Position numbers and translations under genes: made by a program. Below, piece after piece: positions 11,553-28,126 of a stretch of DNA of 32,000 bases; within the stretch, counting starts at the first letter, position 1; each line of letters starts with the position of its first letter. A model generated the notes under the pieces. It saw nothing but the letters and a program-made list of their open reading frames with translations, was not told the DNA's origin and did no database searches. The DNA comes from Mucisphaera calidilacus (GTDB lineage: Bacteria; Planctomycetota; Phycisphaerae; Phycisphaerales; Phycisphaeraceae): assembly GCF_007748075.1 (NCBI RefSeq), contig NZ_CP036280.1:2250001-2282000 (forward strand), given 5' to 3'.

Positions 11553-12281
11553 CTAACGGGTCAGCAGATCGATGAAAGACTGGATGCCGCGCTCGGTCGC
11601 CCGATCGAGCGCGGTTTTTTGATCGCGTGGGTCGGCGATCGCGGGATCCGCACCGTGATCGAGCAGGAGGCGAGCGATGTTGAGGGCGGGTTCGCCTTCG
11701 GCGACGCAGCGGTGGAGCGGGGTGTGGTTTTCGGGGTCTTTGGGGATGGTGTGGTTGGCGTTGGCACCGGCGTCGAGCAGAACGGCAACGGCTCCTTGGC
11801 TCAGGGCGCGGATGGCGTGGTGGAGCGGCGTGCGGGCGGCGTTGTCAGGGGCGTCGACGCGTGCTTCGCGTTCGATGAGCAGGGAGAGGGCGTCGGCGTG
11901 GCCGGCGGCGGCGGCGTTGGTGAGGGGTGAGCGTCCGTCGGCATCGCGGACCTCGATCTCGGCGCCGGCGTCGAGGAGTTGGGTGATGATGGTGGTGTCG
12001 CCTCGGCTGGCTGCGAGGTGGAGCGCCGTTCGCATGGCGTGAAGCGGGGTTTCGAACCGTGTTCGCCCGTCGGGCATGGCACCGAGGTCGAGGAGGAGCG
12101 CCACGGTCTGGGGTGATGCGACTTCGGCGGCGAGGTGGAGCGGGAGGCAGAGTTCGATGCCCCAGTCGCGTTGCTGCCCGACGTGGGTGTGGAGCACGCG
12201 TTCGTTGGCTGCAACGAGTTCGCGGATGGTTGAGTCGTCGTTCTGTTCGATGGCTGCGAAGAGGTCGGCGGGTCGGACCAT
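11553..12281 (-). CDS. Ankyrin-repeat protein
   Basis: At least 5 tandem ~33-aa ANK repeats, for example TALHLAASRGDTTIITQLLDAGAEIEVRDADGRSPLTNAAAAGHADALSLLIEREARVDAPDNAARTPLHHAI. Confidence 0.9.
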   Translation of the reverse strand: MVRPADLFAAIEQNDDSTIRELVAANERVLHTHVGQQRDWGIELCLPLHLAAEVASPQTVALLLDLGAMPDGRTRFETPLHAMRTALHLAASRGDTTIITQLLDAGAEIEVRDADGRSPLTNAAAAGHADALSLLIEREARVDAPDNAARTPLHHAIRALSQGAVAVLLDAGANANHTIPKDPENHTPLHRCVAEGEPALNIARLLLDHGADPAIADPRDQKTALDRATERGIQSFIDLLTR

Positions 12282-12400
12282 GGGTCATTTCCTGAAATCG
12301 GGTTGATAATCAGATGTTAGAGCACCCCCCTGCTGCGTGCCGCGCCATGTGTCTTTACAATCGGGTCCCGAGTTCAGTTTGACGCTTGCAAGGATCACAC

Positions 12401-16525: not shown

Positions 16526-16643
16526 GGCGGTGTTCTCCGTGGTCGAAGGCGATGAGATGTCTTCAGATGTGCTATCTTAGCGATTCGCTCGGGATCGCCC
16601 CGGGACCCGGTTTTTTTGCCCGGGATGGCGATCTTGACCTGCA

Positions 16644-16731
16644 GGACGGGTGTCCGAGCGGCTGAAGGAGCCGGTTTCGAAAACCGGTGTACGGGTTTCC
16701 CGTACCGTGGGTTCGAATCCCACCCCGTCCG
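16644..16731 (+). tRNA. tRNA-Ser (anticodon CGA), class II with long variable arm; CCA not encoded
   Basis: Folded by hand. Acceptor GGACGGG/CCCGTCC plus discriminator G. D arm TCC-GAGCGGCTGAA-GGA. Anticodon stem CCGGT/ACCGG with loop TTCGAAA (anticodon CGA). Variable arm GTACGGG-TTT-CCCGTAC. T arm GTGGG-TTCGAAT-CCCAC. Confidence 0.93.
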
Positions 16732-16747
16732 CTTGGTTCGCACGCCC

Positions 16748-18016
16748 ATGAGGATCTCCATGAATGGCATCCTCCGATCCCTGCTGTGTTCGTTTCTTCT
16801 GTTCGACGCAGCGTCGGTGTTGGCTCAGTCAGCGGAACCGCCGGCTGAGGGGGCTGCCGAGCCGCCTGTCGCGTCGGAGCCCATGGAGGCTGAGGATCCG
16901 GGGCTGATCCGTGGTCTGTCGGAGAGGGTTCTCTCGGACTGGCAGTACGGCTCGTCGGTCAAGGGGAGCCGGCCGTCAGAGTTGCAGGAGCTGAGCACCT
17001 CGAATCTGCAGCCGGTTGAGCAGAAGAACGGCGAGTGGTTTCTGGCCCCTATTCCGGTTTCCAGCCCGCAGACGGGCTTTGCCCTGCTGGGTGTCGGCGG
17101 CTACCTCTTCAGCACCGAGCCGGACAACCCTGAGATGCCGACGTCGATGGTCACCGCGGCGGGGATGTACAGCGAGAACGGCAGTTGGATGGGGCTGCTG
17201 GGCACACGGCTGCACCTGGCCGGCGACAAGTGGCGTATCGAGGGAGGTGGGGGTTACGCGAACTTCAACTACGATTTTTACGGGGTCGGATCGACGCCGG
17301 GCGAGAGTGCGCCACGGATCCCACTTCGGACGCAATATTCGGGGCTTGTGGTACACGTCCTGCGCGAGGTCGCTCCGGACATGTACGCGGGCCCGACGAT
17401 CGGCATGGGCAACATCAAGTCGAACATCCGGACGAACCAGCCTGTGCCGCCGGGGCTGCAGGATGTACTCGAGAGTGACACCACCAACGTCGGTCTTGGT
17501 CTTCGCTACATGTGGGACACACGGGACAATTCGTTGTCGCCGACCGAGGGCTTCCTGCTGGACGCACGGGGCAATGTGAACAACGGTGCCTGGGGCGCGA
17601 GTTTCGACTACGGGTCGCTGGCGGTTGAGTACGCGATGTACCACGCCATCACGGACTCGGGCACACTTGCCTGGCGCATCAAGAACGAGTTCAAGTTCGG
17701 CGATGCGCCCTTCTACGACCTCTCGATGTACGACTTCCGCGGGTACGAGCGTGGCCAGTTCCGCGACAAGTATCTTTTTGGTGCCGAGGTGGAGTACCGT
17801 CAGAAAATCTGGAAACGTCTGGCCGGTGTCGTCTTCACGAGTCTGGGGCAGGTCTCGCCACACTCGTTCGAATTCAGCGTCAACCGCTGGCTGCCCGCGG
17901 CGGGCGGCGGGGTTCGGATCCAGTTAACCGAGAAGAACCCGATGTACTACGCCATCGACTATGCCTATGGCCGAACCGGATCGCAGTACTACATGTCCAT
18001 CGGGCAGGCGTTCTGA
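16748..18016 (+). CDS. Outer-membrane beta-barrel protein, Omp85/bacterial-surface-antigen-like (no obvious POTRA repeats)
   Basis: The track ORF starts at 16616 and would overlap the tRNA. The real start is ATG 16748 (or 16760), giving the signal peptide MRISMNGILRSLLCSFLLFDAASVLAQS. The C-terminal half shows an alternating beta-strand pattern, FRGYERGQFRDKYLFGAEVEYRQ, GGGVRIQL...IDYAYG, and a terminal aromatic (..IGQAF). Confidence 0.65.
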   Translation: MRISMNGILRSLLCSFLLFDAASVLAQSAEPPAEGAAEPPVASEPMEAEDPGLIRGLSERVLSDWQYGSSVKGSRPSELQELSTSNLQPVEQKNGEWFLAPIPVSSPQTGFALLGVGGYLFSTEPDNPEMPTSMVTAAGMYSENGSWMGLLGTRLHLAGDKWRIEGGGGYANFNYDFYGVGSTPGESAPRIPLRTQYSGLVVHVLREVAPDMYAGPTIGMGNIKSNIRTNQPVPPGLQDVLESDTTNVGLGLRYMWDTRDNSLSPTEGFLLDARGNVNNGAWGASFDYGSLAVEYAMYHAITDSGTLAWRIKNEFKFGDAPFYDLSMYDFRGYERGQFRDKYLFGAEVEYRQKIWKRLAGVVFTSLGQVSPHSFEFSVNRWLPAAGGGVRIQLTEKNPMYYAIDYAYGRTGSQYYMSIGQAF

Positions 18017-18020
18017 GGGT

Positions 18021-18977
18021 TCACGCCGGCCATGCGTGGATCACGGCGAGGCTCGCCGCGAGCGAGAAGGGGCACGCGAGCGTGGTGGTGGCGATGATCG
18101 AGGCGGCCAGCCCCTCGTCGCCACGGAGTTGTGTCACGAGGACGTAGCTGGCGACCGCGGTCGGTGTTGAGGCAAGGATCAGAAAGGCAAAGGCCTGCTG
18201 CTGATCCAGTTGCAAGGCCCACGCGAGCAGCACGGCGAGGGCCGGGCCGAGTCCGAGCTTGACGGTCGTGGTGATGGCCGCGAGGCCAAGATGGTTGTGA
18301 ACCTGATAGATGGTCAGCGCCCCGCCGAGACTGATGAGCGCTAGGGGCGCCGCGGGCTGACCGAGGAGGTTGAGCGTGGCAGCAATGGGCCTGATCTGAT
18401 CGACGCCGAGTATCCCCAGCAGCAGGCCGGCGACACAGGCGATGATGAAGGGGTTGGTGACCAGTGCGTGGAGCGTGTCCATGAGCGTCTTGCTCAGGTG
18501 CGTGTCGCTGTCACGCGTGTGATTGGGCAGTGTCAGCACCGGGACGGCGAGGAGGTTGTAGATCGCGATGATCGGCGCGAGCGTGAGTGCGGCGATGGCG
18601 AGGGTTCGGTCGTCGGCGCCGGCGAGTTCGATCACCGGCAGGCCCACGAAGGCCAGATTTCCGCGGAACGCACCCTGGATGACCACGCCGAACGCGGCAC
18701 GCTCACGGCTGAAGATCAGCCAGCAGAGCAGGCCGGCGCCCGCGGTGGTCAGCGTTAGCAGGGTCATCGCGAGGACCACCCAGCCCACGGTGCTATCGAG
18801 ACTCCCGGCTTCCGCGATCTTGATGATCAGGAGGGCCGGCAGGAAGATCCAGTAGACAAGCTTGTCGAGGATCGCCCGGTGTTCGGGCCGCACGAATCCC
18901 GAGCGGAAGAGCATCACGCCGAGCGCTACGAGCAGCACGATCGGCAGCAGCGTCTCGATGATGTGCAGGAAGACCAT
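18021..18977 (-). CDS. AEC (auxin efflux carrier / MleP-like) family membrane transporter
   Basis: Trimmed to ATG 18977 (MVFLHIIETLLPIVLLVALGVMLFRSGF...). About 10 hydrophobic helices in two halves, typical of the Mem_trans family. It lies 41 nt downstream of the DeoR gene on the same strand. Confidence 0.8.
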   Translation of the reverse strand: MVFLHIIETLLPIVLLVALGVMLFRSGFVRPEHRAILDKLVYWIFLPALLIIKIAEAGSLDSTVGWVVLAMTLLTLTTAGAGLLCWLIFSRERAAFGVVIQGAFRGNLAFVGLPVIELAGADDRTLAIAALTLAPIIAIYNLLAVPVLTLPNHTRDSDTHLSKTLMDTLHALVTNPFIIACVAGLLLGILGVDQIRPIAATLNLLGQPAAPLALISLGGALTIYQVHNHLGLAAITTTVKLGLGPALAVLLAWALQLDQQQAFAFLILASTPTAVASYVLVTQLRGDEGLAASIIATTTLACPFSLAASLAVIHAWPA

Positions 18978-19018
18978 GGGCAGATGGTAACGGGAAGCGC
19001 TCTGGCCGAGCCGGGTGT

Positions 19019-19786
19019 TCAGCGTGTCGCGACGGTCAGCCGGCTGCCGAGTGAGGCCGGCCACTGATCGCCAACGCCCGCGTCGGTGATGATCTCGTCG
19101 AAACGATCGAGCTCTGCGACACGAACGAGCGAACGACGACCGAACTTGCTGGCGTCCATGAGCAGGACCGACCGCTCGGCCTGGTCCATCATGGCCAGCT
19201 CGATCCGTGTCAGCTCGGTGTTGAGGTTGTAGCCGGCGTTCTCGTCGAGTGCGGCGAGTGAGAGGAAACAGATATCGGCGTAGAGGTCGCGCAGCGCCTG
19301 GCGTGCGAGCGGTCCGACCATGGCGGAGGTGCGTGGGTAGAGCTTGCCGCCGACCACGGTGATCTCGACCTGCTCGTCGTTGGCGAAGTGCTGTGCGATG
19401 GCGAGGGAGGTCGTCGCGATCTGGATCGGTCGCACGGTGATCTGCTGGGCGGCGTAGACGACGGTCGACCCGGCGTCCATGAGGATCGTCATGTTCGGTT
19501 CGATCAAGCGAGCGGCCGCGGCACCGATCGCGCGTTTGGCCTCGACGTTGTCTGCCATGCGTCCGGCGAAGGCGGTTGCCTGCCCGCTGTGCGTGGTGGG
19601 CGACGTGTCGAGGAGCACCGCCCCGCCGTGCGTGCGCTCGATGAGCCCGCGTTCTGCCAGCCGGTCGAGATCACGCCTGACCGTTGAGACACTCACGTCG
19701 AGTTCTGCGGAGAGCATCTCGAGACTGGCGCTGCCTCGCTGCTTGAGGATGTCCAGGAGGCGTTGCTGGCGTTCGAGGATCAGCAT
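19019..19786 (-). CDS. DeoR-family transcriptional regulator (HTH + sugar-phosphate-binding DeoR C-terminal domain)
   Basis: The track ORF extends to 20074 through an S/R/A-rich frame that overlaps the upstream dehydrogenase. The real start is ATG 19786: MLILERQQRLLDILKQRGSASLEMLSAELDVSVSTVRRDLDRLAERGLIERTHGGAV. C-terminal domain: ILMDAGSTV...FLSLAALDE...VLLMDASKFGRRSL. Confidence 0.88.
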   Translation of the reverse strand: MLILERQQRLLDILKQRGSASLEMLSAELDVSVSTVRRDLDRLAERGLIERTHGGAVLLDTSPTTHSGQATAFAGRMADNVEAKRAIGAAAARLIEPNMTILMDAGSTVVYAAQQITVRPIQIATTSLAIAQHFANDEQVEITVVGGKLYPRTSAMVGPLARQALRDLYADICFLSLAALDENAGYNLNTELTRIELAMMDQAERSVLLMDASKFGRRSLVRVAELDRFDEIITDAGVGDQWPASLGSRLTVATR

Positions 19787-19820
19787 GTATGGGTGTATCG
19801 GCTGGTGGTGCCCCCGCGGG

Positions 19821-20744
19821 TCACTTGAGCTGGGCGAAGGTCTGGTCGAGTGACTGGCTCGACCGCTGCAGGCCGGCGAGTTCCTTGGGCCAGAGCTTGA
19901 TGTCATGGTAGCCCACAACACCCTCGCGGCCCACGACTGTCGGGATCGACAGGCAGACACGCTGCAAGCCGTACTGGCCTGACATGCGTGTCGAGACGGG
20001 GAGGATCTGGCGGCTGTCGAGCGCGATGCTGTGGATGACCTCGAGAATCGAAAGCCCCACGGCGTAGCCGGCACCGCCCTTGCGGCGGATCACCTCGGCG
20101 CCGGAACCCTTGGTGCGCTCGAAGATGGTCTGCTGCTCGTTGGGGGTGAGCAGTTCGGTGAGCGCGATGCCGCCTACGGTTGCCGACGACCAGATCGGCG
20201 ACATCGAGTCGCCGTGCTCGCCGAGGATCAGGGCCTTGACCTGCGTGGGCGGGAGGTTCTTCGCCTCGGCGATCATCGATCGGAAACGGGCGGTGTCGAG
20301 CACCGTGCCCAGGCCCATCACCCGCTGCGGGTTCCAGTCTAGGTACTCGACCGCGAGGCGTGTGAGCACGTCGACGGGGTTGGAGACGACAAAGAGGATC
20401 GCGTCGCGTGACAGCCCGCCATCCCTCAGGCCATCGAGGATGCCGCGGAAGATCGAGACGTTGCGGTTGATCAGGTCGAGTCGTGACTCGTCCGGTTTGC
20501 GGCGTGAGCCGGCCGTGATGCAGACGACGTCGGCGTCGGCCACCTCGCTGAGATTCGCGGCGTGGATGCGCTGATCGGCGATGATCGAGCTGCCGTGGAG
20601 CAGGTCGAGCGCCTCGCCCTGGGCGGCGTCGTGGTTGACGTCCACCAGCGCGATGTCACGGACAATGCCGCCACACTGCAGGGCGTAAGCTGCGTTCGAT
20701 CCGACGCGTCCCGCGCCGCCGACGATGGCTACCTTGATCGACAT
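19821..20744 (-). CDS. LDH/MDH-family NAD-dependent 2-hydroxyacid dehydrogenase (Arg at the substrate-specificity position)
   Basis: KVAIVGGAGRVGSNAAYAL, IALVDV, specificity loop ITAGSRRKPDESRLDL, NPVDV, LDTARFR, catalytic GEHGDS. Substrate is not assignable from sequence alone (see findings). Confidence 0.85.
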   Translation of the reverse strand: MSIKVAIVGGAGRVGSNAAYALQCGGIVRDIALVDVNHDAAQGEALDLLHGSSIIADQRIHAANLSEVADADVVCITAGSRRKPDESRLDLINRNVSIFRGILDGLRDGGLSRDAILFVVSNPVDVLTRLAVEYLDWNPQRVMGLGTVLDTARFRSMIAEAKNLPPTQVKALILGEHGDSMSPIWSSATVGGIALTELLTPNEQQTIFERTKGSGAEVIRRKGGAGYAVGLSILEVIHSIALDSRQILPVSTRMSGQYGLQRVCLSIPTVVGREGVVGYHDIKLWPKELAGLQRSSQSLDQTFAQLK

Positions 20745-20777
20745 GATTCAGACTCTCGTTGGCTGTTTGTTCAGGGT

Positions 20778-21641
20778 TTACTTGGCACCGGCCATGATCT
20801 GGTCGGTAATGGATCGGACGAGTTGCTCGAAGTCGGCGTCGGACCCGCCCGCGGCGGCGGAGGGCGTCGCGACCTGACCGTCGCAGCCGCACGATGCGCT
20901 CATCGGCTGAACGCCGAAGGTCGTGAGGAAGGCCTCGTTGTCGGGGCCGACGCATCCGGTCGGTGCGCACTTGAGGCGGTCGTCGGGGAAGCCGAAGCGT
21001 TGCTTGACCTTCAGCAGGTCGGTCATCTGGTTGTCGTCAAGCACGTTCACCTGACCGAGTTGCTTGGTGAGGATCAACTGCTTGCAGTAGTTGTCGAGGA
21101 TCTCCAGGCGGTAGTAGGCCTCGATGAGCGTGCTGCCGAGCGAGACCGAGCCGTGGTTGGCCATCAGGATGGTGTTGGTCTGCTCGTTGATGCGATCGAT
21201 GAAGCTCGCGGGCAGGTCGGGGCCGCCTGGGGTCGCGTACTTGGCGAAGATCGTGCGTCCCAGGAAGACCTCGGCCTCGGGGTGGATGCCCTCGGGCAGC
21301 GGGATGTTGGCGAGGCAGAAGGCGACGGCGTGCGGCGGGTGCGAGTGAATGACCGCCTTGACCGTCGGCTGTTTCTTGTAGATCGCCAGGTGGACGAGCA
21401 CCTCGCTGGTCCGCTTGCGGCCCTTGCCGTTCGACTCGACCTGGTTGCCGTCCATGTCGACGATGCAGAGGTCCTCGGGGTCGAGGAAGCCCTTGCTGAT
21501 GCCGGTTGGCGTGCAGACGACGCGGTCTTCGCTGATGCGCACCGAGTGGTTGCCCTCATTGCCAGCGCAGTAGCCGCGCTGCCAGATGCGGTTGCCGATG
21601 TCGCACATTTCTTTTTTGATCTGCCAGATTGGAGCGTTCAC
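20778..21641 (-). CDS. Class II aldolase (fuculose/rhamnulose-1-phosphate aldolase-like) with a ~65-aa C-terminal extension ending in an encapsulation-peptide-like helix
   Basis: GTG start at 21641 with GAGGA 7 nt upstream. GNEGNHSVR, Zn ligands VIHSHPPHAVAF and LMANHGSVSLG. The extension past the ~220-aa core reads CAPTGCVGPDNEAFLTTFGVQPMSASCGCDGQVATPSAAAGGSDADFEQLVRSITDQIMAGAK. Confidence 0.88.
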   Translation of the reverse strand: MNAPIWQIKKEMCDIGNRIWQRGYCAGNEGNHSVRISEDRVVCTPTGISKGFLDPEDLCIVDMDGNQVESNGKGRKRTSEVLVHLAIYKKQPTVKAVIHSHPPHAVAFCLANIPLPEGIHPEAEVFLGRTIFAKYATPGGPDLPASFIDRINEQTNTILMANHGSVSLGSTLIEAYYRLEILDNYCKQLILTKQLGQVNVLDDNQMTDLLKVKQRFGFPDDRLKCAPTGCVGPDNEAFLTTFGVQPMSASCGCDGQVATPSAAAGGSDADFEQLVRSITDQIMAGAK

Positions 21642-21679
21642 AGCGTGTTCCTCAAGTCAGTGAGGGGGGAAAGTCAGGT

Positions 21680-21982
21680 TCAGGTGTTCCATTCGATCTG
21701 GTCGAGGATCGCGGCGTTATATGCATCGACCGGTGCCTTGCCCGGATGAAAAGGCGCCGCCGCCTCGCGTCCCTCGCTGATGGCGATCACCGCGCCGATC
21801 CCGGCACCGAGCGAATCAAAGACCACCAGCGACTCGGGCATCGGCGACTGCCGCGGCTTACTCGACTTGATGCCGGCCAGCGCGGGCCCGTCGAGTACTT
21901 CGCCGATCAGGAGCTGGCCCGGCGGGAAGCCGTTGAGCGACTTGCCGAGGGTCACGTTGCCGATGACGCGTGCGATCCTCAT
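21680..21982 (-). CDS. BMC-P pentameric vertex protein (EutN/CcmL family), paralogue 3
   Basis: Only the last 100 codons of track ORF 21680..22894 are credible: MRIARVIGNVTLGKSLNGFPPGQLLIGEVL...ESLVVFDSLGAGIGAVIAISEGREAA...DAYNAAILDQIEW. The ATG at 21982 overlaps the stop of the upstream gene (ATGA). Confidence 0.85.
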   Translation of the reverse strand: MRIARVIGNVTLGKSLNGFPPGQLLIGEVLDGPALAGIKSSKPRQSPMPESLVVFDSLGAGIGAVIAISEGREAAAPFHPGKAPVDAYNAAILDQIEWNT

Positions 21983-22824
21983 GAGCGTGCCCCCTCTACC
22001 GCGTGCAGTGCGTGAGCGATCGTCGCGGGCACCGCGGGTGACGAGGCCAGCATGCTGTCCACCCGGCCGGCCATCTGGTCGTAATCGTTGTACGGGAACT
22101 CGAGAATGAGCACGTTCGCGCCGAGGTCGCGCAGGCCCTGCCGCACAGAACCGTCGCAGTGCCCGAGGATCGCGCGGATGCCACGCAGACGGTTGGCGAA
22201 GCACATCGGCTTGGCGGCCTGGGCGACAAAAAGGATGCCGCCCGCCGCACGCCCGGTGCTGATCGCGCCGGCCATGTCGGTCAAGACCGAAGGCAACGCG
22301 GCTGCCTCGCGCGGAGCGATCATCGGCAGCAAGCGATGCCGACGCTCCTCGACGATCTGCTTCACCGCCGGACACTGCCCGCACGTCCACCACAGCCACG
22401 GCTGGCCGTAGTTGATGGCCTGGAGCGTGCCCTGCGTGGCCGCGACCTGCCGCCTGGAGAACCGGTGCGGCGCCTGCCGGACCTTGTCCTGCGCCAGCGG
22501 TGTCAGACGCGCGGTCGCAGCCAGGATTACGCTGCCGTCGGGAGAGGAGGCGACGGCATCGTCGATCATGTTCGCCGTGATCAGACCGTCGATCACGGGA
22601 GGCTCGGTCAAAGCCTGAACCATGGGCGGATCGCCCTGCTGCGACACCGTGACCGGCGGGCTGACCGGAGCCGGATCGGGCAGCACGCCCGCGCCCGGGC
22701 ACTGACCGAGTGGCGGCTGGATCGGCGCCGGTGTCGAACCACCCGACGCCTGCATCGCGCGCAGCACCTGCTCCGCGATCCGTGCGATGAGTTGGGGGTC
22801 CGGTGTGGTCATGGCGTCTGTCAC
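21979..22824 (-). CDS. BMC-associated protein: N-terminal encapsulation-peptide-like helix, Pro-rich linker, C-terminal RpiB/LacAB-like fold with degenerate catalytic residues
   Basis: The GTG at 22824 overlaps the stop of the upstream BMC-P (GTGA); ATG 22812 is an alternative start. N-terminus DPQLIARIAEQVLRAMQ, then a P-rich tract. The C-terminal GGILFVAQAAKPMCFANRLRGIRAILGHCDGSVRQGLRDLGANVLILEF aligns with the RpiB block [27 protein letters not shown]...HNDTNVLAFG as I remember it. That this is a real CDS is solid; the fold call is moderate. Confidence 0.6.
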   Translation of the reverse strand: MTDAMTTPDPQLIARIAEQVLRAMQASGGSTPAPIQPPLGQCPGAGVLPDPAPVSPPVTVSQQGDPPMVQALTEPPVIDGLITANMIDDAVASSPDGSVILAATARLTPLAQDKVRQAPHRFSRRQVAATQGTLQAINYGQPWLWWTCGQCPAVKQIVEERRHRLLPMIAPREAAALPSVLTDMAGAISTGRAAGGILFVAQAAKPMCFANRLRGIRAILGHCDGSVRQGLRDLGANVLILEFPYNDYDQMAGRVDSMLASSPAVPATIAHALHAVEGARS

Positions 22825-23102
22825 TTGCGCGGCACCTGGATGCCGTTGGGGTCAACAATCGAGAGTGTCCACCATCGTGCGGGGCTGGAATCATCGTGCA
22901 GCAGGTCGCGGATTCCCAGGCCGTCGGAGGTGATCACCACCGTGTCGTCGCGGCCCGCACCGAGGTTGTCGAGGACGAGCACCGGATCACCAACCGGCTG
23001 CATCGCGTTGCCGAGCATCTCGACAAGCAGCATTTTCGCGCCGTCCAGCGACGGGTGCTTGATAGTGCTCGTGGCTCGGCCTCGTACGACAGCGAGTTGC
23101 AT
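22821..23102 (-). CDS. BMC-P pentameric vertex protein (EutN/CcmL family), paralogue 2
   Basis: MQLAVVRGRATSTIKHPSLDGAKMLLVEMLG...DPVLVLDNLGAGRDDTVVITSDG...WWTLSIVDP is the canonical EutN/CcmL pattern. ATG with GGAGA upstream. Confidence 0.85.
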   Translation of the reverse strand: MQLAVVRGRATSTIKHPSLDGAKMLLVEMLGNAMQPVGDPVLVLDNLGAGRDDTVVITSDGLGIRDLLHDDSSPARWWTLSIVDPNGIQVPRK

Positions 23103-23123
23103 AGCGTCGGTCGTCTCCGTGGG

Positions 23124-24590
23124 TCAGATCATCCGCAGGGAACCGCTGACGCTCATGCGTCGGAAGCGGGTGAACGTCGCGGGGCTGGTGATGCCCTCGC
23201 CGCTGGGTGTGGCGATCGAATAGCTGGCGTAGCCCTCGCCGCCCGCGCCAAGGCCGGCCGTGCAGGGTCCGTTCACAACGAAGAGCGTCGTGTTCATCAC
23301 ACGACCCATCCGCGAGATGTTCGCGAGGTTGTTCGAGTGGATGATCGCCGTGTGCCCGAAGCCGTGCTCGTTCTCGACCGCCAGCTGCAACGCGTGGTCG
23401 AAGTGGCTGCAACGCACAAACGGCACGAAGGGCATCATCTGCTCGGTCGGGACAAAGGGGTGATCCGCGGCGGTCTCGCCGAAGAGCAGGTCCGTGCCCG
23501 CGGGCACCGTGATCCCCGCGGCCTCGGCGAGCCGTGACGCATCGGCACCCACGAACTCCTTGCGGGGGACCCAGTGGTCGTCGTGGAAGGTCATCGCCGT
23601 CTCGGTGAGCTTGTTGATCTGCTGCGTGGTCAGCTGCACCGCGCCGGCGTTCACCATCGCCTGCATCATCGCCTCGAACACCTCGCGGACGACAAAGACT
23701 TCCTTCTCGCCGATGCAGAGGAGGTTGTTGTCGAACGCGGCGCCGGCGATGATCGACTTCGCGGCGTTGTCCAGGTCGGCCGAGGCATCGATCACCACGG
23801 GCGGGTTGCCCGGGCCCGCGACGATCGCTCGCTTGGGCTGCTTGGCGGCTGCCTTGGCGACCGCCGGCCCGCCGGTCGCCACCAGCAGCGGGATGCGCGG
23901 GTGGCTGAAGATCTTCTCGGCACTCCGCAGCGTCGGCGGGTCCATGATGCAGAGCAGCGGGTCGATGTTGAACTGCTGCTTGATGGCACGGTTGTAGGTG
24001 CGTGCGGCGAGGATCGCCGACTTCGCGCCCGACGGGTGTGCGTTGATCACCATCGAGTTGCCCGCCGCGATCATGTTGATGGCGTTCGCGGTCATGGTCG
24101 GGATCGAGTGGGTCACCGGCGTGATGACACCGATCACGCCCCACGGCGCGCCCTCGTCGAGGGAGACGCCGTCGTCGCCGCTGTGCGCCGGCGTGGTCAG
24201 GAACTCCACGCCCGGCACGTTCTCGAGCAACTCGAGCTTGGCGATCTTGTGATCCAGCCGCCCGACCTGCGTCTCGTTCAGCTCGAACTCGCCCCAGGCC
24301 TTGGCGTTCTCGCCGGCGATCTTCTTGATGAGCTTGACGATGGCGTCGCGTGTCTTGACGCCTGCCGCGGCCAGCTGCTGCTGGGCCTTCTCGGCCGAGG
24401 CGACTGCCGTATCCACGTCCGCGAACGTGCCCTCAGCCGGGTTGGCCTGCGACGCCGGGGCCGGTGCCGAACCCTGGTTGGCAGATGGCCGGCTGTTCGT
24501 AGCGGGCGCGGCCTGGCTGTTGGCGGCGCTCTGCATCTGCCGGAGCACCTCGGTCACCACGCTCTGAATGAGTTCGGATTGCTGCATCAT
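23124..24590 (-). CDS. CoA-acylating aldehyde dehydrogenase (PduP/EutE-like) with N-terminal encapsulation peptide
   Basis: N-terminus MMQQSELIQSVVTEVLRQMQ plus a ~30-aa Q/A/P/S/N linker, then the ALDH fold: GVIGVITPVTHSIPT, GPGNPPVVID, catalytic Cys context NNLLCIGEKEVFV, ENEHGFGHTAIIHS. Confidence 0.92.
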   Translation of the reverse strand: MMQQSELIQSVVTEVLRQMQSAANSQAAPATNSRPSANQGSAPAPASQANPAEGTFADVDTAVASAEKAQQQLAAAGVKTRDAIVKLIKKIAGENAKAWGEFELNETQVGRLDHKIAKLELLENVPGVEFLTTPAHSGDDGVSLDEGAPWGVIGVITPVTHSIPTMTANAINMIAAGNSMVINAHPSGAKSAILAARTYNRAIKQQFNIDPLLCIMDPPTLRSAEKIFSHPRIPLLVATGGPAVAKAAAKQPKRAIVAGPGNPPVVIDASADLDNAAKSIIAGAAFDNNLLCIGEKEVFVVREVFEAMMQAMVNAGAVQLTTQQINKLTETAMTFHDDHWVPRKEFVGADASRLAEAAGITVPAGTDLLFGETAADHPFVPTEQMMPFVPFVRCSHFDHALQLAVENEHGFGHTAIIHSNNLANISRMGRVMNTTLFVVNGPCTAGLGAGGEGYASYSIATPSGEGITSPATFTRFRRMSVSGSLRMI

Positions 24591-24612
24591 GAAGGCTCAC
24601 ATATGGAAAACG

Positions 24613-24975
24613 TCAGCGGCTCTTGCCCCTGGGTTTCGCGGGCGTGGTCTCGATCGGGTTGCCGCCGATCGAGGCCGAATCGATCACGCCGACAATCACC
24701 GCGTCGGTTGGCATCTTGCCGCAGCCCTCGGCCAGCCGGGCACTCGAACCCTGCGTCACGAGCACGACCTGGCCGGTGGCCGCGCCGATGCTGTCGATCG
24801 CCACGATCGCACGACCGGTGATCGAGAATCGACCCGCGCTGGCCACGCCGTTGGCGGCGACCTTGTTGTCGTCGTAGTCGACCTTGAGCGGCTCGATGAT
24901 CAGCAGGCGCGTCCCCTTGAGGGATTCATCCTTGACGGTGGACACGACCTGGCCTTTGACACGTCCGAGGAACAT
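24613..24975 (-). CDS. BMC-P pentameric vertex protein (EutN/CcmL family), paralogue 1, with internal insertion and basic C-terminal tail
   Basis: MFLGRVKGQVVSTVKDESLKGTRLLIIEPL...AIVAIDSIGAATGQVVLVTQGSSAR...DAVIVGVID, followed by SASIGGNPIETTPAKPRGKSR. Confidence 0.85.
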   Translation of the reverse strand: MFLGRVKGQVVSTVKDESLKGTRLLIIEPLKVDYDDNKVAANGVASAGRFSITGRAIVAIDSIGAATGQVVLVTQGSSARLAEGCGKMPTDAVIVGVIDSASIGGNPIETTPAKPRGKSR

Positions 24976-25037
24976 GGCGTTGCTCCGAGCGCAGCGACGC
25001 TGCGCATGGATAGGGGGACCGAACGCTGGAGCGGTGA

Positions 25038-25301
25038 TCAGATCTTGAGGACGTCGTCGTGCGGACGCGGGATCACGTTCACCGAGAGCACTTCGCCCAC
25101 GCGACGCGCTGCCTCGGCCCCCGCCTCGACCGCTGCCTTGACCGCGGCGACATCGCCCTCAACGGTCACGGCGACCATGCCGCTGCCGGGCTTGTCCTTG
25201 CGCAGGAACTTGACGTTCGCGGCCTTGAGCGCCGCATCAAGAGCTTCGATGGCGGGAACGAGTCCCTTGGTCTCAATGGTTCCGATCGATTGCTGGGCCA
25301 T
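25038..25301 (-). CDS. BMC-H hexameric shell protein (PduA/EutM-like), paralogue 1
   Basis: [30 protein letters not shown]...[48 protein letters not shown] is the canonical single BMC domain. Confidence 0.93.
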
Positions 25302-25325
25302 GGTTAGGCTCCTGTCTAAAAGGTG

Positions 25326-25348
25326 CTCGCCGACACACGCACGGCGAG
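25326..25348 (-). terminator. Candidate partial terminator or attenuator hairpin between ackA and BMC-H paralogue 1
   Basis: 7-bp GC-rich inverted repeat CTCGCCG-(9 nt)-CGGCGAG. On the minus strand it begins 7 nt after the ackA stop and is followed by CACC-TTTT-A, then the AGGAG of the next gene. The short T-tract suggests, at best, leaky termination or an RNA stability element. Confidence 0.3.
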
Positions 25349-25355
25349 GATGGTG

Positions 25356-26552
25356 TCACGTCGCAGACGCCGAACCCGCCAGGACCTCGAGGGTCTGACG
25401 GGCAACGACCTGCTCTTCGTCGGTGGGGATCACCCAGACCTCCACGTCACTGTTTTTCCTGCTCACCAGCGTCTCGGCGTTGCCGTCTGCGCCGGCGCTG
25501 GTCGTCTCATCAAGTCGGATGCCGAGGAAGGCAAGATCACGACAGACCGCCTCGCGGATCCGGATATTGTGCTGGCCGATCCCGCCCGTGAAGACCAGCG
25601 CGTCGACGCCGCCGAGGGCGACCGCGTACGCGCCGATGTAATGCCTGCAGGACTCGACAAACGCGTCTACCGCCAGTTGGGCACGCTCGTTGCCCTCCGA
25701 CGCGGCCTTCTGCACGTCACGCATGTCCGCGCTCACGCCACTGATCCCCAGCAGGCCGCCCTGCTTGCCCAGTTGGCTGAGGACGTCGTCCACCGACAGC
25801 CCCATCCCACGCAGCTTCAGCAACGCGTACATGTCGAAGTCGCCGACACGGGCCGCGTGCAGGATGCCGGTCTGAGGGGTTGTGCCGAACGAGTTGGCGA
25901 CGCTCTGCCCCGCCTTGATCGCGCAGGCCGAGCACGACCCGCCGAGGTGGAGGTTGATGACGCGTTTCGCCTCGGGTCGAATCTGCTGCATGCGACGCGC
26001 GATGTAAGCGTTGGAGGCTCCGTGGAAGCCGTAGCGACGCACGCCCTGCTCGGTCCAGTCGTACGGGATGCCGTACACCTGCCGGGCCATCGGGATGCTC
26101 TGGTGGAACGCCGTCTCGAACGCCGCCACCTGCCACGCATCGGGGAGCAGTTGAGCAAAGGCTTTCATGGCCGCGATGTAAGGCGGGTTGTGCGCCGGAG
26201 CGAGGTCGCTGAAGGAGGTCATCGTGTCGATGACGTCCTGATCGACGCGCACCGCACCCGAGATCGGTCCGCCATGCACGGCCTTGAAGCCGATGGCGTC
26301 GATCCGGCTGCTGTCGCCGAAACCCACCGCGGGCATTTCCGCCAACAACGCAGCGATCGCCGCCTGGTGGTCGGCGAAGTCCGCCTGACCCTCACGCGTC
26401 GCCTCACTCCCGCTCACCTTCCACGCGCTGCCGCCCTGCCCGATCCGGTCCGCGGCGCCCGATGCAAGCGCAGTCAGGCTCTCGTCCGCGCTCGTCTCGT
26501 AGAGCTTGAACTTGAGGCTGGTGGAGCCGAGATTGGCGACAAGGACGATCAT
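25356..26552 (-). CDS. ackA: Acetate kinase (acyl-phosphate:ADP phosphotransferase)
   Basis: MIVLVANLGSTSLKFKLY, AIGFKAVHGG, PAHNPP, RRYGFHGASN, INLHLGGSCS, VFTGGIGQ, VWVIPTDEE. No terminal extension that looks like an encapsulation peptide. Confidence 0.93.
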   Translation of the reverse strand: MIVLVANLGSTSLKFKLYETSADESLTALASGAADRIGQGGSAWKVSGSEATREGQADFADHQAAIAALLAEMPAVGFGDSSRIDAIGFKAVHGGPISGAVRVDQDVIDTMTSFSDLAPAHNPPYIAAMKAFAQLLPDAWQVAAFETAFHQSIPMARQVYGIPYDWTEQGVRRYGFHGASNAYIARRMQQIRPEAKRVINLHLGGSCSACAIKAGQSVANSFGTTPQTGILHAARVGDFDMYALLKLRGMGLSVDDVLSQLGKQGGLLGISGVSADMRDVQKAASEGNERAQLAVDAFVESCRHYIGAYAVALGGVDALVFTGGIGQHNIRIREAVCRDLAFLGIRLDETTSAGADGNAETLVSRKNSDVEVWVIPTDEEQVVARQTLEVLAGSASAT

Positions 26553-26585
26553 GACGCTTCCGGTGAGGGTGCTTGCGTATCAGGC

Positions 26586-26846
26586 TCAGAGCTTGTCGAC
26601 GAGCTGATCGTGCGGACGCGGGATCACGTGCGCCGCGACCAACTCACCCACCGCGCCGGCCGCTTCGGCACCGGCGTCGACCGCGGCCTTGACCGAACCG
26701 ACGTCGCCGGTCACGAGCACGGTGATGTACGCGCCGCCGATGGCGACGGACTTGCTCAGCGTCACGTCCGCGGCTTTGAGCATCGCGTCGGTGCCCTGGA
26801 TCAGGCCGGTCTGGCCACGTGTTTCGAGGATGCCGATGGCAGCCAT
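26586..26846 (-). CDS. BMC-H hexameric shell protein, paralogue 2 (atypical pore loop)
   Basis: MAAIGILETRGQTGLIQGTDAMLKAADV...SVAIGGAYITVLVTGDVGSVKAAVDAGAEAAGAVGELVAAHVIPRPHDQL. Confidence 0.9.
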   Translation of the reverse strand: MAAIGILETRGQTGLIQGTDAMLKAADVTLSKSVAIGGAYITVLVTGDVGSVKAAVDAGAEAAGAVGELVAAHVIPRPHDQLVDKL

Positions 26847-26917
26847 CTTGAGTCTCCTTGCAGGCGGTCACGCCGCCGGATTGAGGGTTCGTTCTTTGGC
26901 CCTGGTCGGGCGTGTTC

Positions 26918-27217
26918 TTACTTGCGGGTGGTCTTGCGGGCGGCGGCGGCGGGCACCATCGCGTCCAGCTCGTCGTGCGGACGGGGGATCACGTGCACGC
27001 CAACGATCTCGCCCACGCGTGAGCCCGCGGCGGCACCGGCGTCGATCGCGGCCTTCACGGCAGCAACATCACCGGTGATGAACGAGGTCACGAGACCCGA
27101 GCCGCACTTGTCCCAGCCGAGCATCTCGACGTTGGCGGCCTTGAGCATCGCGTCTGACGATTCGATCAGGGTGGCAAACCCCTTGGTTTCCAGCATGCCG
27201 AGTGCAGTCTGAGCCAT
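26918..27217 (-). CDS. BMC-H hexameric shell protein, paralogue 3 (Cys in pore loop, basic C-terminal tail)
   Basis: [84 protein letters not shown] plus the tail DAMVPAAAARKTTRK. Confidence 0.92.
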   Translation of the reverse strand: MAQTALGMLETKGFATLIESSDAMLKAANVEMLGWDKCGSGLVTSFITGDVAAVKAAIDAGAAAGSRVGEIVGVHVIPRPHDELDAMVPAAAARKTTRK

Positions 27218-27278
27218 CAGTAAGTCTCCGTTGTGACGACGCCAAGTCGTCGGGGATCAGGGTTCCGTTCAACAGGCT

Positions 27279-27974
27279 TCAAGCCTTGGTCAGTTCCATG
27301 TGCGTCGCGGTGGCCAGATGACAGGCGTTGCCCTCGTCGGTGTCGATATGCACCTCGAGCTTCACCTTGGGGTTCACACGCACGACCACGTTGTCCAGCG
27401 TCAGGCCGCAGGGCCCGTCAATCCGTAGCTTCATCTTCTCGCCGTCCACCACGTTGTACCGCTCGGCGTCCTTCGGGCTCATGTGTACGTGCCGCTGGGC
27501 ACGCACCACACCCGCGGCGAGATTCACCGCGCCGTGGGGACCTACCAGCACACCCCCTGGCGTGCCCTCGTGGTTCCCGCTGATCCGCAGCGGCAACTCG
27601 ATCCCGAGGTAGATCCCGTCGGTGTAGGAGAGTTCGACCTGGGTGTAGTCACGCGTCGGGCCGAGGATCCGCACGTTCGGGATCATCCGGTTCCGTGGGC
27701 CGATCAGGTTCACGGTCTGCTCCGAAGCAAACTCGCCGTCCTGATAGAGATTCTTCAGCACCGTCAGTTTCGAACCCGGACCAAACAGCGTCTCGAGGTC
27801 CTGCTGCGTGACGTGCACGTGCCGCGCCGAGACATTCACCACCAGCGGGTTTTCGCCCGCGGTTGCCTGCTGCGACGGGAGATTCCCCGACGACCAGCGA
27901 TCACGGAGCGCCTCGCGGACGAGTTGCTCCACCTGGGCACGGTCCATGTTGGCGAGTTGGGGCATGAGTTGCAC
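27279..27974 (-). CDS. pduL: PduL-type phosphotransacylase with N-terminal encapsulation peptide
   Basis: Two PduL half-domains: VVNVSARHVHVTQQDLETLFG...VRILGPTR and VVRAQRHVHMSPKDAERY...VRVNP...VHIDTDEGNA. N-terminus MDRAQVEQLVREALRDRW plus linker. The track start TTG 28013 is unlikely. GTG 27974 has GGAGA 5 nt upstream; ATG 27965 is the alternative. Confidence 0.9.
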   Translation of the reverse strand: MQLMPQLANMDRAQVEQLVREALRDRWSSGNLPSQQATAGENPLVVNVSARHVHVTQQDLETLFGPGSKLTVLKNLYQDGEFASEQTVNLIGPRNRMIPNVRILGPTRDYTQVELSYTDGIYLGIELPLRISGNHEGTPGGVLVGPHGAVNLAAGVVRAQRHVHMSPKDAERYNVVDGEKMKLRIDGPCGLTLDNVVVRVNPKVKLEVHIDTDEGNACHLATATHMELTKA

Positions 27975-28003
27975 GGTGATCTCCGAGAAGTGATATCGCT
28001 CAA

Positions 28004-28033
28004 AAGATACCAAATCTTCCCATCGGATGCCAA
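28004..28033 (-). promoter_or_regulatory. Candidate sigma70-like promoter of the BMC operon (TTGGCA-N18-TATCTT) in an AT-rich island
   Basis: On the minus strand, TTGGCA (28033..28028), an 18-nt spacer and TATCTT (28009..28004) would give a leader of about 20 nt that includes the GGAGA before GTG 27974. The surrounding ~70 nt are conspicuously AT-rich for this genome. Promoter rules for this lineage are uncertain. Confidence 0.25.
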
Positions 28034-28061
28034 TTTCTATCTCAAATTATCGAACAATGCC

Positions 28062-28086
28062 ACAAAACCGCTGCCAACAGCGGTTT
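28062..28086 (-). terminator. Intrinsic terminator downstream of the GH31 gene
   Basis: Perfect 9-bp inverted repeat AAACCGCTG-(4 nt)-CAGCGGTTT at 28065..28086. On the minus strand it reads AAACCGCTG TTGG CAGCGGTTTT GTGG, 40 nt after the GH31 stop codon. Confidence 0.5.
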
Positions 28087-28126
28087 ATAAGCCCGCCGAT
28101 ACGCCAACGCGTTCAATTCCTGTCAA

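Follow-up and report, generated by a model that had tools for sequence, protein, structure and literature searches.

A complete and typical PVM-type metabolosome operon in the planctomycete Mucisphaera calidilacus Pan265

Does a densely packed cluster of minus-strand genes in Mucisphaera calidilacus Pan265 encode a complete metabolosome, to which class of bacterial microcompartment (BMC) does it belong, and which substrate would such an organelle handle? The cluster lies in a stretch of 32,000 nucleotides of contig NZ_CP036280.1 (positions 2,250,001 to 2,282,000, hereafter the window, with position 1 as its first letter), for which a first-pass annotation had proposed a complete and apparently intact operon of 13 to 14 genes that encodes three shell hexamer proteins (BMC-H), three shell pentamer proteins (BMC-P) and no tandem-domain shell protein (BMC-T), together with an aldolase, an acylating aldehyde dehydrogenase (AldDH), the phosphotransacylase PduL and an acetate kinase (Ack), and which it assigned to the known organelle class of Planctomycetes and Verrucomicrobia (PVM). 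We found that the locus is indeed a PVM-type metabolosome operon that is complete, intact and typical in every respect. Its gene content and order, its intactness, the catalytic motifs and encapsulation peptides of its products and its recurrence in other genomes could all be observed directly.

An intact 13-gene locus of a known organelle class

Fourteen consecutive and co-directional open reading frames (ORFs) are closely spaced on the minus strand of the window (18021-28013), with gaps of -4 to 71 nt between them. Using Pfam gathering scores as domain cut-offs, beside NCBIfam models with their own cut-offs, 13 of these 14 ORFs scored above threshold for the domains that had been expected from the first reading, the exception being an RpiB-like protein that stayed below it. 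A composition screen for coding frames gave a third-position GC of 0.77-0.92 in eight operon frames (the genome has 65% GC), showing that these eight are real coding frames, while the other frames rest on their Pfam matches. Concerning the shell, three PF00936 proteins and three PF03319 proteins each exceeded their gathering scores, and tblastn searches with the shell proteins as queries detected three BMC domains, all of them single, and three EutN domains in the window, and no further ones. When tandem-domain BMC-T and PduS proteins from relatives were used as tblastn queries, no match to either was found in the whole window, so that Pfam and tblastn agree on the shell inventory that had been proposed. 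Rfam and ARAGORN detected no RNA element in the BMC locus, the tRNA-Ser that was found lying outside of it.

This arrangement is widely conserved. A genome scan with the aldolase as query returned 80 related loci, nearly all from Phycisphaerae, against which all the window proteins were mapped by tblastn. The order pduL, BMC-H, BMC-H, ack, BMC-H, BMC-P, aldDH, BMC-P, RpiB-like gene, BMC-P, aldolase, (ldh), deoR was found in about 50 other Phycisphaerae genomes, whose proteins are 55-90% identical to their orthologues in the window, and independent gene calls with Pfam labels revealed the same gene order in two distant metagenome loci (L081 and L084) that were found through short homologues of the RpiB-like protein. 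Departures from this order are minor. The gene for a lactate/malate dehydrogenase (LDH/MDH)-like enzyme is absent from about half of the related loci. In Phycisphaerae loci, deoR stands at the 3' end, as in the window, and a third BMC-H gene between ack and the first BMC-P gene is present in nearly all of them and also in L081 and L084; two loci from outside the Phycisphaerae (L066 and L069) lack this third gene, have two BMC-H genes in the operon and carry deoR upstream and in divergent orientation. Since the genes encoding an AEC-family transporter, a glycoside hydrolase of family 31 (GH31) and an Omp85-like protein that surround the cluster in the window have no match in the 80 related loci, the conserved unit is made of the 13 genes from pduL to deoR.

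Two observations on the related loci stand apart from this shared order. Three Phycisphaeraceae PVM loci (L003, L004 and L009) carry, upstream of pduL and on the opposite strand, a PduS-like gene (RnfC/Complex1_51K-type) and a gene for a 192-aa tandem-BMC protein (L003:1376-3272; L004:1965-3272), showing that the lack of BMC-T is not universal among PVM loci. Separately, L081 and L084 share an extra conserved gene between ldh and deoR (L081:12908-14119, encoding 403 aa with no Pfam match on record, and L084:12888-13322) that has no counterpart in the window.

A cluster of this kind could in principle be a decaying or silent remnant that builds no organelle, as might be suspected from the fact that genes feeding sugars into the pathway were not found nearby and that growth data of the strain on fucose or rhamnose are absent. 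Nevertheless, all 13 conserved genes are full-length and display the high third-position GC that is typical of expressed genes in this genome, the catalytic motifs of the aldolase, of the AldDH and of PduL are intact, and content and order are maintained across about 50 genomes at the identities given above. The initial impression of a complete locus was therefore justified, and a remnant is highly improbable.

To which class of BMC does the locus belong? PVM loci (cluster 4.1 of Axen et al. 2014) have been defined by a class II aldolase as signature enzyme, accompanied by DeoR, by an acetate kinase and by a dehydrogenase of LDH/MDH type for which a role in NAD+ recycling has been proposed (PMC4207490). 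The supplements of Sutter et al. (PMC8217296) catalogue 285 PVM loci, from Planctomycetes and Verrucomicrobia only, describe them with two BMC-H proteins and three distinct BMC-P proteins (a triplet), and name their products PvmB (phosphotransacylase), PvmD/E (BMC-H), PvmG (kinase), PvmH/K/M (BMC-P), PvmJ (AldDH), PvmL, PvmN (aldolase) and PvmO (LDH-type); PVM loci from metagenome-assembled genomes of Phycisphaeraceae are already included, and no mention of Pan265 or Mucisphaera was found in the portions that were searched. For Planctopirus limnophila (Erbilgin et al. 2014, as described in PMC4207490, PMC11958385 and the PMC8217296 supplement), the notation pvmABDEGHIJKLMNO is used, which begins with the DeoR regulator PvmA (PMC11958385), and PVM-type loci have also been described in Tepidisphaerales genomes (Tepidisphaera mucosa and Fontivita pretiosa, which were re-analysed) in a study that cites an earlier BMC demonstration in 'Humisphaera borealis' (PMC13514998).

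The window locus has the following components of such a system: BMC-H and BMC-P shell genes are both present (three PF00936 and three PF03319), the class II aldolase (PF00596) carries a C-terminal encapsulation peptide, the AldDH (PF00171) and the PduL-type phosphotransacylase (PF06130) each carry an N-terminal one, the acetate kinase, LDH/MDH-type dehydrogenase, DeoR and PvmL genes are all four found, and the host belongs to the Phycisphaerae in the Planctomycetota, in agreement with the 100% identity of two encoded proteins, PvmL and the aldolase, to M. calidilacus Pan265 proteins and with closest loci that are all from Phycisphaerae. Compared by gene letters and catalogue text, the run from pduL to ldh, twelve genes long, lines up with the twelve letters B, D, E, G, H, I, J, K, L, M, N and O; positions H and I may differ in identity, as the catalogue has two BMC-H proteins and names PvmH a pentamer. 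The three BMC-H proteins of the window are 55-60% identical to each other. The three BMC-P proteins share 26-30% mutual identity and occupy conserved positions flanking the AldDH and PvmL genes; they are putative counterparts of PvmH, PvmK and PvmM, the pentamers of the purple, grey and orange clades in the catalogue. Because the 13-gene order recurs in about 50 Phycisphaerae genomes and because its letter order matches that of the P. limnophila cluster, the locus is a canonical PVM-type metabolosome (PVM proper), and the organelle class is known rather than novel, as had been claimed on first reading.

The likeness to the P. limnophila PVM extends to the class II aldolase with its C-terminal encapsulation peptide, the AldDH, the PduL-type phosphotransacylase, the acetate kinase, the LDH/MDH-type enzyme, PvmL, DeoR, a probable BMC-P triplet, the lack of BMC-T and the Planctomycetota host. 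The two loci differ in that deoR comes first in P. limnophila and last in the window, and in that the type locus is described in the catalogue with two BMC-H and three BMC-P genes, whereas the window has a third BMC-H gene between ack and the first BMC-P gene. Other Phycisphaerae PVM loci share the gene order of the window, and none of them has an AEC or a GH31 neighbour.

The title of the first-pass annotation called the locus 'PVM-like', by which its text meant the PVM organelle. In the catalogues, this name designates another class (cluster 4.2 of Axen et al., 'PVMlike' of Sutter et al.), found in Firmicutes and related to GRM5 by its AldDH, phosphotransacylase and BMC-P, in which an aldolase BMC passes lactaldehyde on to propanediol metabolism. 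Besides the name itself, what speaks for such an assignment is that a class II aldolase signature enzyme and DeoR are common to PVM and PVM-like loci (PMC4207490); PVM-like/GRM5 loci, such as that of the Clostridium phytofermentans fucosome, indeed have a homologous class II aldolase that likewise bears its encapsulation peptide at the C-terminus, and their proposed intermediate is also lactaldehyde derived from fucose or rhamnose. However, these loci are mostly from Firmicutes, whereas the window host is a planctomycete, and they have another shell complement, no BMC-P triplet, no PvmL and an AldDH and a phosphotransacylase of GRM5 type, whereas the window combines three divergent BMC-P genes, PvmL and an LDH-type dehydrogenase in the pvm gene order. 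In GRM5 systems, lactaldehyde is moreover reduced to propanediol, which is then dehydrated by a glycyl radical enzyme; neither a glycyl radical enzyme nor a diol dehydratase was found in the window. On both taxonomy and gene content, membership in the PVM-like class is thus extremely improbable: the organelle that was meant stands, while its label has to be corrected to PVM. The features of the locus are listed in Table 1.

Table 1. Positions in the window of the 14 minus-strand genes and of the region upstream of pduL, with the match or element on which each entry is based
Feature	Position	Strand	Basis
pduL / pvmB homologue, phosphotransacylase	27279..27965	-	Pfam PTAC 239 bits, 2.6e-71
BMC-H shell hexamer protein, PvmD position, 99 aa	26918..27217	-	Pfam BMC 98 bits, 2.1e-28
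BMC-H shell hexamer protein, PvmE position, 86 aa	26586..26846	-	Pfam BMC 88 bits, 5.1e-25
Acetate/propionate-family kinase, pvmG homologue	25356..26552	-	Pfam Acetate_kinase 337 bits, 1.1e-100
Third BMC-H, 87 aa	25038..25301	-	Pfam BMC 94 bits, 7.4e-27
BMC-P pentamer 1, 'standard', PvmH-type by position, 120 aa	24613..24975	-	EutN_CcmL 89 bits, 3.6e-25
CoA-acylating aldehyde dehydrogenase, pvmJ homologue	23124..24590	-	Pfam Aldedh 95 bits
BMC-P pentamer 2, PvmK position, 93 aa	22821..23102	-	EutN_CcmL 67 bits, 2.4e-18
PvmL homologue, RpiB-like	21979..22812	-	LacAB_rpiB 19.4 bits, sub-threshold (cut-off 24.7)
BMC-P pentamer 3, PvmM position, 100 aa	21680..21982	-	EutN_CcmL 53 bits, 4.9e-14
Class II (FucA-like) aldolase, signature enzyme, pvmN homologue	20778..21641	-	Aldolase_II 156 bits, 1.8e-45
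LDH/MDH-family NAD dehydrogenase, pvmO homologue	19821..20744	-	Ldh_1_N and Ldh_1_C above cut-offs
DeoR-family regulator, pvmA homologue, cluster 3' end	19019..19783	-	HTH_DeoR and DeoRC above cut-offs
AEC-family (Mem_trans) transporter, downstream of deoR	18021..18977	-	Mem_trans 89 bits, 2.5e-25
GH31-pduL intergenic region	27966..28126	-	Hairpin, sigma-70-like match, direct repeat

Three of the gene starts in Table 1 differ from those of the mechanically called ORFs. For pduL, the ATG at 27965 is the probable start, the mechanical ORF running on to a TTG at 28013, and the PvmL gene probably starts at 22812, which gives the 277-aa product annotated at NCBI (mechanical ORF 21979-22824). For the AEC gene, the probable start is the ATG at 18977, the point at which the Pfam Mem_trans model sets in (residue 34 of the mechanical ORF, 18021-19064).

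Cargo enzymes and the proposed lactaldehyde route

The enzyme roles initially proposed for the aldolase, the AldDH, PduL and Ack were all reproduced at the level of domains, and for the first three also at the level of motifs. PduL scored 244 bits against the NCBIfam phosphate propanoyltransferase model (cut-off 209) and 148 bits over residues 41-217 against the R. palustris PduL structure 5CUO, with its RHxH motifs kept. The AldDH reached 550 bits with NCBIfam PRK15398 (cut-off 403); its best PDB relatives are the BMC aldehyde dehydrogenases 5JFL and 4C3S (330 and 312 bits, respectively) and its catalytic Cys motif is kept (NNLLCIGEKE). The acetate kinase homologue scored 335 bits with TIGR00016 (cut-off 293). 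As for the aldolase, its catalytic domain covers residues 1 to ~189, and alignments with FucA structures showed that the catalytic pair (Ser-Glu) and the three His residues that bind the metal are kept.

Four of the proteins carry encapsulation peptides, all adjoined by low-complexity linkers. These peptides are N-terminal on PduL (MDRAQVEQLVREALRDRW, ~27894-27947, amphipathic and followed by a linker), on the AldDH (SELIQSVVTEVLRQMQ, ~24531-24578, with an amphipathic moment of 0.58 and a linker rich in A/P/S/Q) and on the RpiB-like protein PvmL (DPQLIARIAEQVLRAMQ, ~22750-22800, then a proline-rich disordered linker), and C-terminal on the aldolase (FEQLVRSITDQIMAGAK, ~20781-20837, after a variable linker). 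Such termini have been described for encapsulation peptides of PVM and other metabolosome cargo (PMC4594438). The amphipathic C-terminus of the aldolase is conserved (FExMVQxITDQIMA) and absent from stand-alone paralogues. No encapsulation peptide was found on the kinase or on the LDH-like enzyme, whose termini have no amphipathic extension.

The aldolase has a further particularity. Its AlphaFold model is confident up to about residue 245, and a folded extension contains two Cys pairs between residues 225 and 253 (~20883-20969), namely C225/C230 (KCAPTGC, CxxxxC) and C251/C253 (SCGC, CxC). Among 46 Phycisphaerae homologues, the first pair hardly varies, and both pairs are missing in stand-alone aldolase paralogues and in the distant PVM loci L081 and L084. 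Since L081 and L084 lack them, the Cys pairs are a lineage-specific trait of Phycisphaerales-type loci and not a hallmark of PVM organelles; they could bind a metal or have a redox function.

Homology to P. limnophila allows the likely substrate, the route through lactaldehyde, the regulation and the formation of the organelle to be outlined as follows. Cytosolic enzymes encoded elsewhere would convert L-fucose or L-rhamnose, which are 6-deoxyhexoses, into a ketose-1-phosphate, which the FucA-like aldolase, anchored within the shell through the encapsulation peptide at its C-terminus, would cleave into dihydroxyacetone phosphate (DHAP) and L-lactaldehyde. The encapsulated acylating AldDH would then turn lactaldehyde, NAD+ and coenzyme A (CoA) into lactyl-CoA, PduL would convert lactyl-CoA into lactyl-phosphate while regenerating CoA, and the acetate kinase homologue would use lactyl-phosphate to form lactate and ATP. 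NADH would be re-oxidised by the LDH/MDH-like dehydrogenase, which in the P. limnophila model reduces a second lactaldehyde to 1,2-propanediol. The three BMC-H proteins would tile the facets of a shell whose vertices would be capped by the three divergent BMC-P proteins, and this shell would separate the reactive aldehyde from the cytoplasm. Expression would be controlled by the DeoR-family regulator encoded at the end of the operon, and PvmL would be a fourth peptide-tagged cargo protein, with a role that is probably not that of an isomerase.

We consider it likely, by analogy with the characterised systems, that the organelle uses L-fucose and/or L-rhamnose through this lactaldehyde mechanism. 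Because feeder genes are absent from the window and from the neighbourhood of the related loci, the assignment of these two sugars rests on published lines of evidence: P. limnophila genetics, as told in reviews (PMC4207490, PMC11958385), BMCs that were observed when a Limisphaera strain was grown on rhamnose, and BMC genes that were induced by fucoidan in other planctomycetes.

Several findings weigh against this assignment. Pfam annotation of the 32-kb window revealed none of the isomerase, kinase, permease, fucosidase or rhamnosidase genes that would be expected to feed the aldolase, and a census of 1073 flanking ORFs from 64 loci showed that feeder genes are not conserved beside the related loci either, the largest flanking family being a 157-aa protein that is found downstream in 10 loci and looks LysM-like by eye; the earlier remark that the isomerase and kinase steps are not in the operon was therefore correct. 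In addition, the aldolase reaches no NCBIfam equivalog cut-off, those of FucA and RhaD included, the species description (PMC8882080) mentions neither fucose, rhamnose nor microcompartments, and the likeness to the P. limnophila type locus is one of gene letters and catalogue text, not of sequences. Finally, PvmO, the LDH/MDH-like dehydrogenase, has an MDH-type Arg at the position that distinguishes LDH from MDH, and fits the role of a lactaldehyde reductase poorly.

This last point deserves a closer description. PvmO scores slightly under both the L-LDH and the MDH cut-offs of NCBIfam. Its substrate loop reads RRKPDESRLDL without variation in 37 orthologues as well as in L081 and L084, and the second Arg of this loop aligns with the Gln of the LDH motif 'PQKPGE', at a position that we take to separate lactate from malate dehydrogenases. 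Lactaldehyde has reportedly been assumed to be the substrate of PvmO since 2014. Since the loop Arg is MDH-like and since the scores are under both cut-offs, a role as lactaldehyde reductase is not obvious, and the loop suggests that the real substrate may be anionic (oxaloacetate/malate or a phosphorylated triose) instead of lactaldehyde.

Could the same PVM-type organelle be fed by another ketose-1-phosphate? Candidates would be 5-deoxyribulose-1-phosphate, 5-methylthioribulose-1-phosphate (from DHAP-shunt salvage), D-ribulose-1-phosphate or L-xylulose-1-phosphate, in which case the shell would trap acetaldehyde, methylthioacetaldehyde or glycolaldehyde instead of lactaldehyde. The aldolase would allow for this, in that it fits no specific NCBIfam equivalog: its best sub-threshold models are 3-oxo-tetronate-4-phosphate decarboxylase and archaeal FucA, MtnB-type models also score, and its UniRef name refers to methylthioribulose-1-phosphate. 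Class II aldolases have also been noted as promiscuous (PMC4207490), the core enzymes AldDH, PduL and Ack serve short acyl groups in general, and the missing fucose/rhamnose feeder genes point in the same direction. Nonetheless, the sole experimental evidence for this type of locus (from P. limnophila, Limisphaera and fucoidan induction) favours fucose and rhamnose, the window shows strict synteny with those fucose/rhamnose-linked loci, and its aldolase has kept the FucA-type phosphate- and metal-binding residues. Altogether, this makes another ketose-1-phosphate rather improbable as the substrate, and fucose and rhamnose the preferred ones.

PvmL, an RpiB-fold protein without the isomerase residues

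The 277-aa PvmL homologue of the window is annotated at NCBI as a 'hypothetical protein' (locus tag Pan265_18700), and we identified it by its position between two BMC-P genes and by its membership in a family of 667 clusters (E <= 1e-8). After the N-terminal peptide and linker described above, the protein consists of a small alpha/beta domain, which is conserved and contains an invariant TPLAxD motif, and of a C-terminal domain with an RpiB fold. An alignment of 38 homologues (A1) distinguishes a long form of the family, from Phycisphaerales-type loci, which has the N-terminal peptide and the proline-rich linker, from a short form that begins directly at the TPLAxD domain.

Is PvmL an isomerase, as its resemblance to RpiB might suggest? 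Its fold clearly points in this direction. The AlphaFold model of PvmL has a mean predicted local distance difference test (pLDDT) score of 86.8, and Foldseek aligned its C-terminal domain with 1o1x over 144 columns (E 3e-06, TM 0.78). At E <= 1e-3, Foldseek returned 36 PDB matches, 34 of which are RpiB/LacAB chains and the other two ketol-isomerase chains, and the family profile retrieved RpiB/LacB chains only among its PDB matches down to E 0.5. Some PvmL orthologues also exceed the Pfam LacAB_rpiB threshold that the window protein does not reach.

The catalytic residues tell another story. In E. coli RpiB, we take these to be Cys66 and Thr68 of the CGTG loop, His99 and Asn100. When alignment A1 was compared by hhalign with E. 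coli RpiB (whose numbering in the sequence used agrees with the published catalytic positions), the family had Val at Cys66, Gln at Thr68, a gap at His99 and Leu at Asn100, and a HMMER alignment to 3qd5 likewise placed a near-invariant Val of the family opposite the Cys of CGTG. Since Cys66, Thr68, His99 and Asn100 are not kept, PvmL is unlikely to act as an RpiB-type isomerase. The description 'RpiB-like' given on first reading thus holds for the fold, as seen with the profile and with AlphaFold and Foldseek; the catalytic residues of the isomerase are gone and the Pfam score is sub-threshold. A different label is used in the catalogue, where the supplements name PvmL with a hidden Markov model derived from PF02441 (PMC8217296). 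Pfam showed no match of PF02441 in PvmL, even at E = 10, and this label could not be reproduced.

A comparable protein exists in SPU (sugar-phosphate utilisation) BMCs, which have a pfam02502 RpiB-type protein encoded beside paired 'grey/orange' BMC-P genes, with an encapsulation peptide on some copies; in the window, the RpiB-fold PvmL is encoded between two of the three BMC-P genes. SPU BMCs differ by their signature enzyme, which is a DeoC-type class I aldolase, and their pfam02502 protein is described as a ribose-5-phosphate isomerase. Because the pfam02502 gene of SPU BMCs stands beside the equivalent BMC-P pair, this analogy suggests that PvmL and the SPU protein share ancestry.

The PvmL gene is also intimately linked to its neighbours: its 3' end, with the stop codon, runs 4 nt into the gene that follows, and it overlaps or abuts both flanking BMC-P genes in the window as well as in L081 and L084, with overlaps of 1-10 nt across lineages. 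As a tentative possibility, to which we give limited credence, PvmL could be a catalytically dead RpiB-fold relic of an SPU-like ancestor that acts as an assembly or vertex-associated factor and not as an enzyme. Such a role would be in line with its translational coupling to the two 'special' flanking BMC-P genes, with the encapsulation peptide that one subfamily has of its own, with the invariant non-RpiB motifs that have been kept (TPLAxD, a WW motif and conserved Cys residues), and with the missing catalytic residues of the isomerase.

Surroundings of the locus and its biological interest

The region between the GH31 gene and pduL (27966..28126) is probably the promoter region of the operon, judging from its sequence elements. 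A terminator-like hairpin (28065-28086) is located 3' of the GH31 gene and folds at -27.3 kcal/mol (z = -1.96), and a weak sigma-70-like match (28004-28033) directly precedes pduL. Since the hairpin follows GH31 and the sigma-70-like match precedes pduL, the GH31 gene and the BMC operon are probably separate transcription units. A 10-bp direct repeat, AWTTGGYATC (28006-28015 and 28026-28035 on the minus strand, with a 20-bp spacing), overlaps the promoter-like match. It was considered as a DeoR operator and rejected, as its occurrence in the window does not exceed chance and as none of 49 relatives has it upstream of pduL.

The GH31 gene itself (28127-30709, minus strand) encodes a glycosidase of 860 aa with an extra N-terminal domain of ~230 residues, and the best PDB relative of this protein is the alpha-glucosidase II 5DJW (724 bits). 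In E. coli, sulfoglycolysis genes are accompanied by a DeoR-family regulator and a GH31 sulfoquinovosidase. With a GH31 gene directly upstream of the operon and on the same strand, one could imagine that GH31, BMC, DeoR and AEC genes form one sulfoquinovose-type unit, with a sulfoquinovosidase-like GH31 enzyme that sets free a sulfosugar, an organelle that handles sulfolactaldehyde and a transporter that exports the product. This idea was ruled out, and we give it practically no probability: the PDB relatives of the GH31 protein are alpha-glucosidases, with no sulfoquinovosidase down to 1e-30, the terminator-like hairpin lies between GH31 and pduL, and neither GH31 nor AEC genes are found beside any of the 80 related loci. 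The aldolase is moreover class II and FucA-like, and not of the class I sulfofructose-phosphate aldolase type.

On the other side of the operon, the AEC transporter had been counted as an operon member in the first-pass annotation. As tblastn gave 0 matches in the 80 related loci for the AEC transporter, for the upstream GH31 and for the downstream Omp85-like gene, this membership does not hold for the conserved PVM locus, to which the transporter is a lineage-specific addition; it could be a carrier of a product or of a substrate.

The other genes of the window are housekeeping or unrelated genes, encoding an isocitrate/isopropylmalate dehydrogenase, NrdR, a GGDEF protein, a PurU-like formyltransferase, a dihydrolipoamide-dehydrogenase-like protein, a peroxiredoxin, an ankyrin protein, a glycogen synthase and an epimerase. 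The ankyrin-repeat protein (11553-12281, minus strand; Ank_2 4.9e-31) and a URO-D-family protein whose match spans the C-terminal half only (3892-5160, minus strand) are unrelated to the BMC locus. The glycogen synthase, a 620-aa protein (12386-14248, plus strand), matches Pfam Glycogen_syn (PF05693) over its full length (1.7e-208), and this family is mainly that of the eukaryotic-type (GT3) glycogen synthase, which is uncommon in bacteria. A tRNA-Ser(CGA) at 16644-16732 on the plus strand overlaps the mechanical start of the ORF 16616-18016 of the Omp85 superfamily, showing that the true start of this gene is downstream of the tRNA. Lastly, GC skew is strongly positive (+0.2 to +0.3) from 1 to ~16 kb despite the mixed strands of the genes, then decreases gradually, passes through zero at ~24-25 kb inside the BMC operon and falls to -0.15 by 30 kb; the maximum of the cumulative skew could mark closeness to the replication terminus.

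PVM microcompartments let planctomycetes and verrucomicrobia use fucose and rhamnose from algal and plant polysaccharides, which makes them relevant to marine carbon turnover. The copy described here adds nothing new on the organelle class as such. Pan265 is, however, a cultured and genome-sequenced marine Phycisphaerae strain, in which the standard predictions for PVM organelles are directly testable. Three conserved details of these loci are unexplained: the RpiB fold of PvmL without its catalytic residues, the MDH-type Arg of PvmO and, in Phycisphaerales-type loci, the Cys pairs of the aldolase. The interest of the locus is mainly that it offers a tractable place in which to probe these unexplained components of the PVM organelle.

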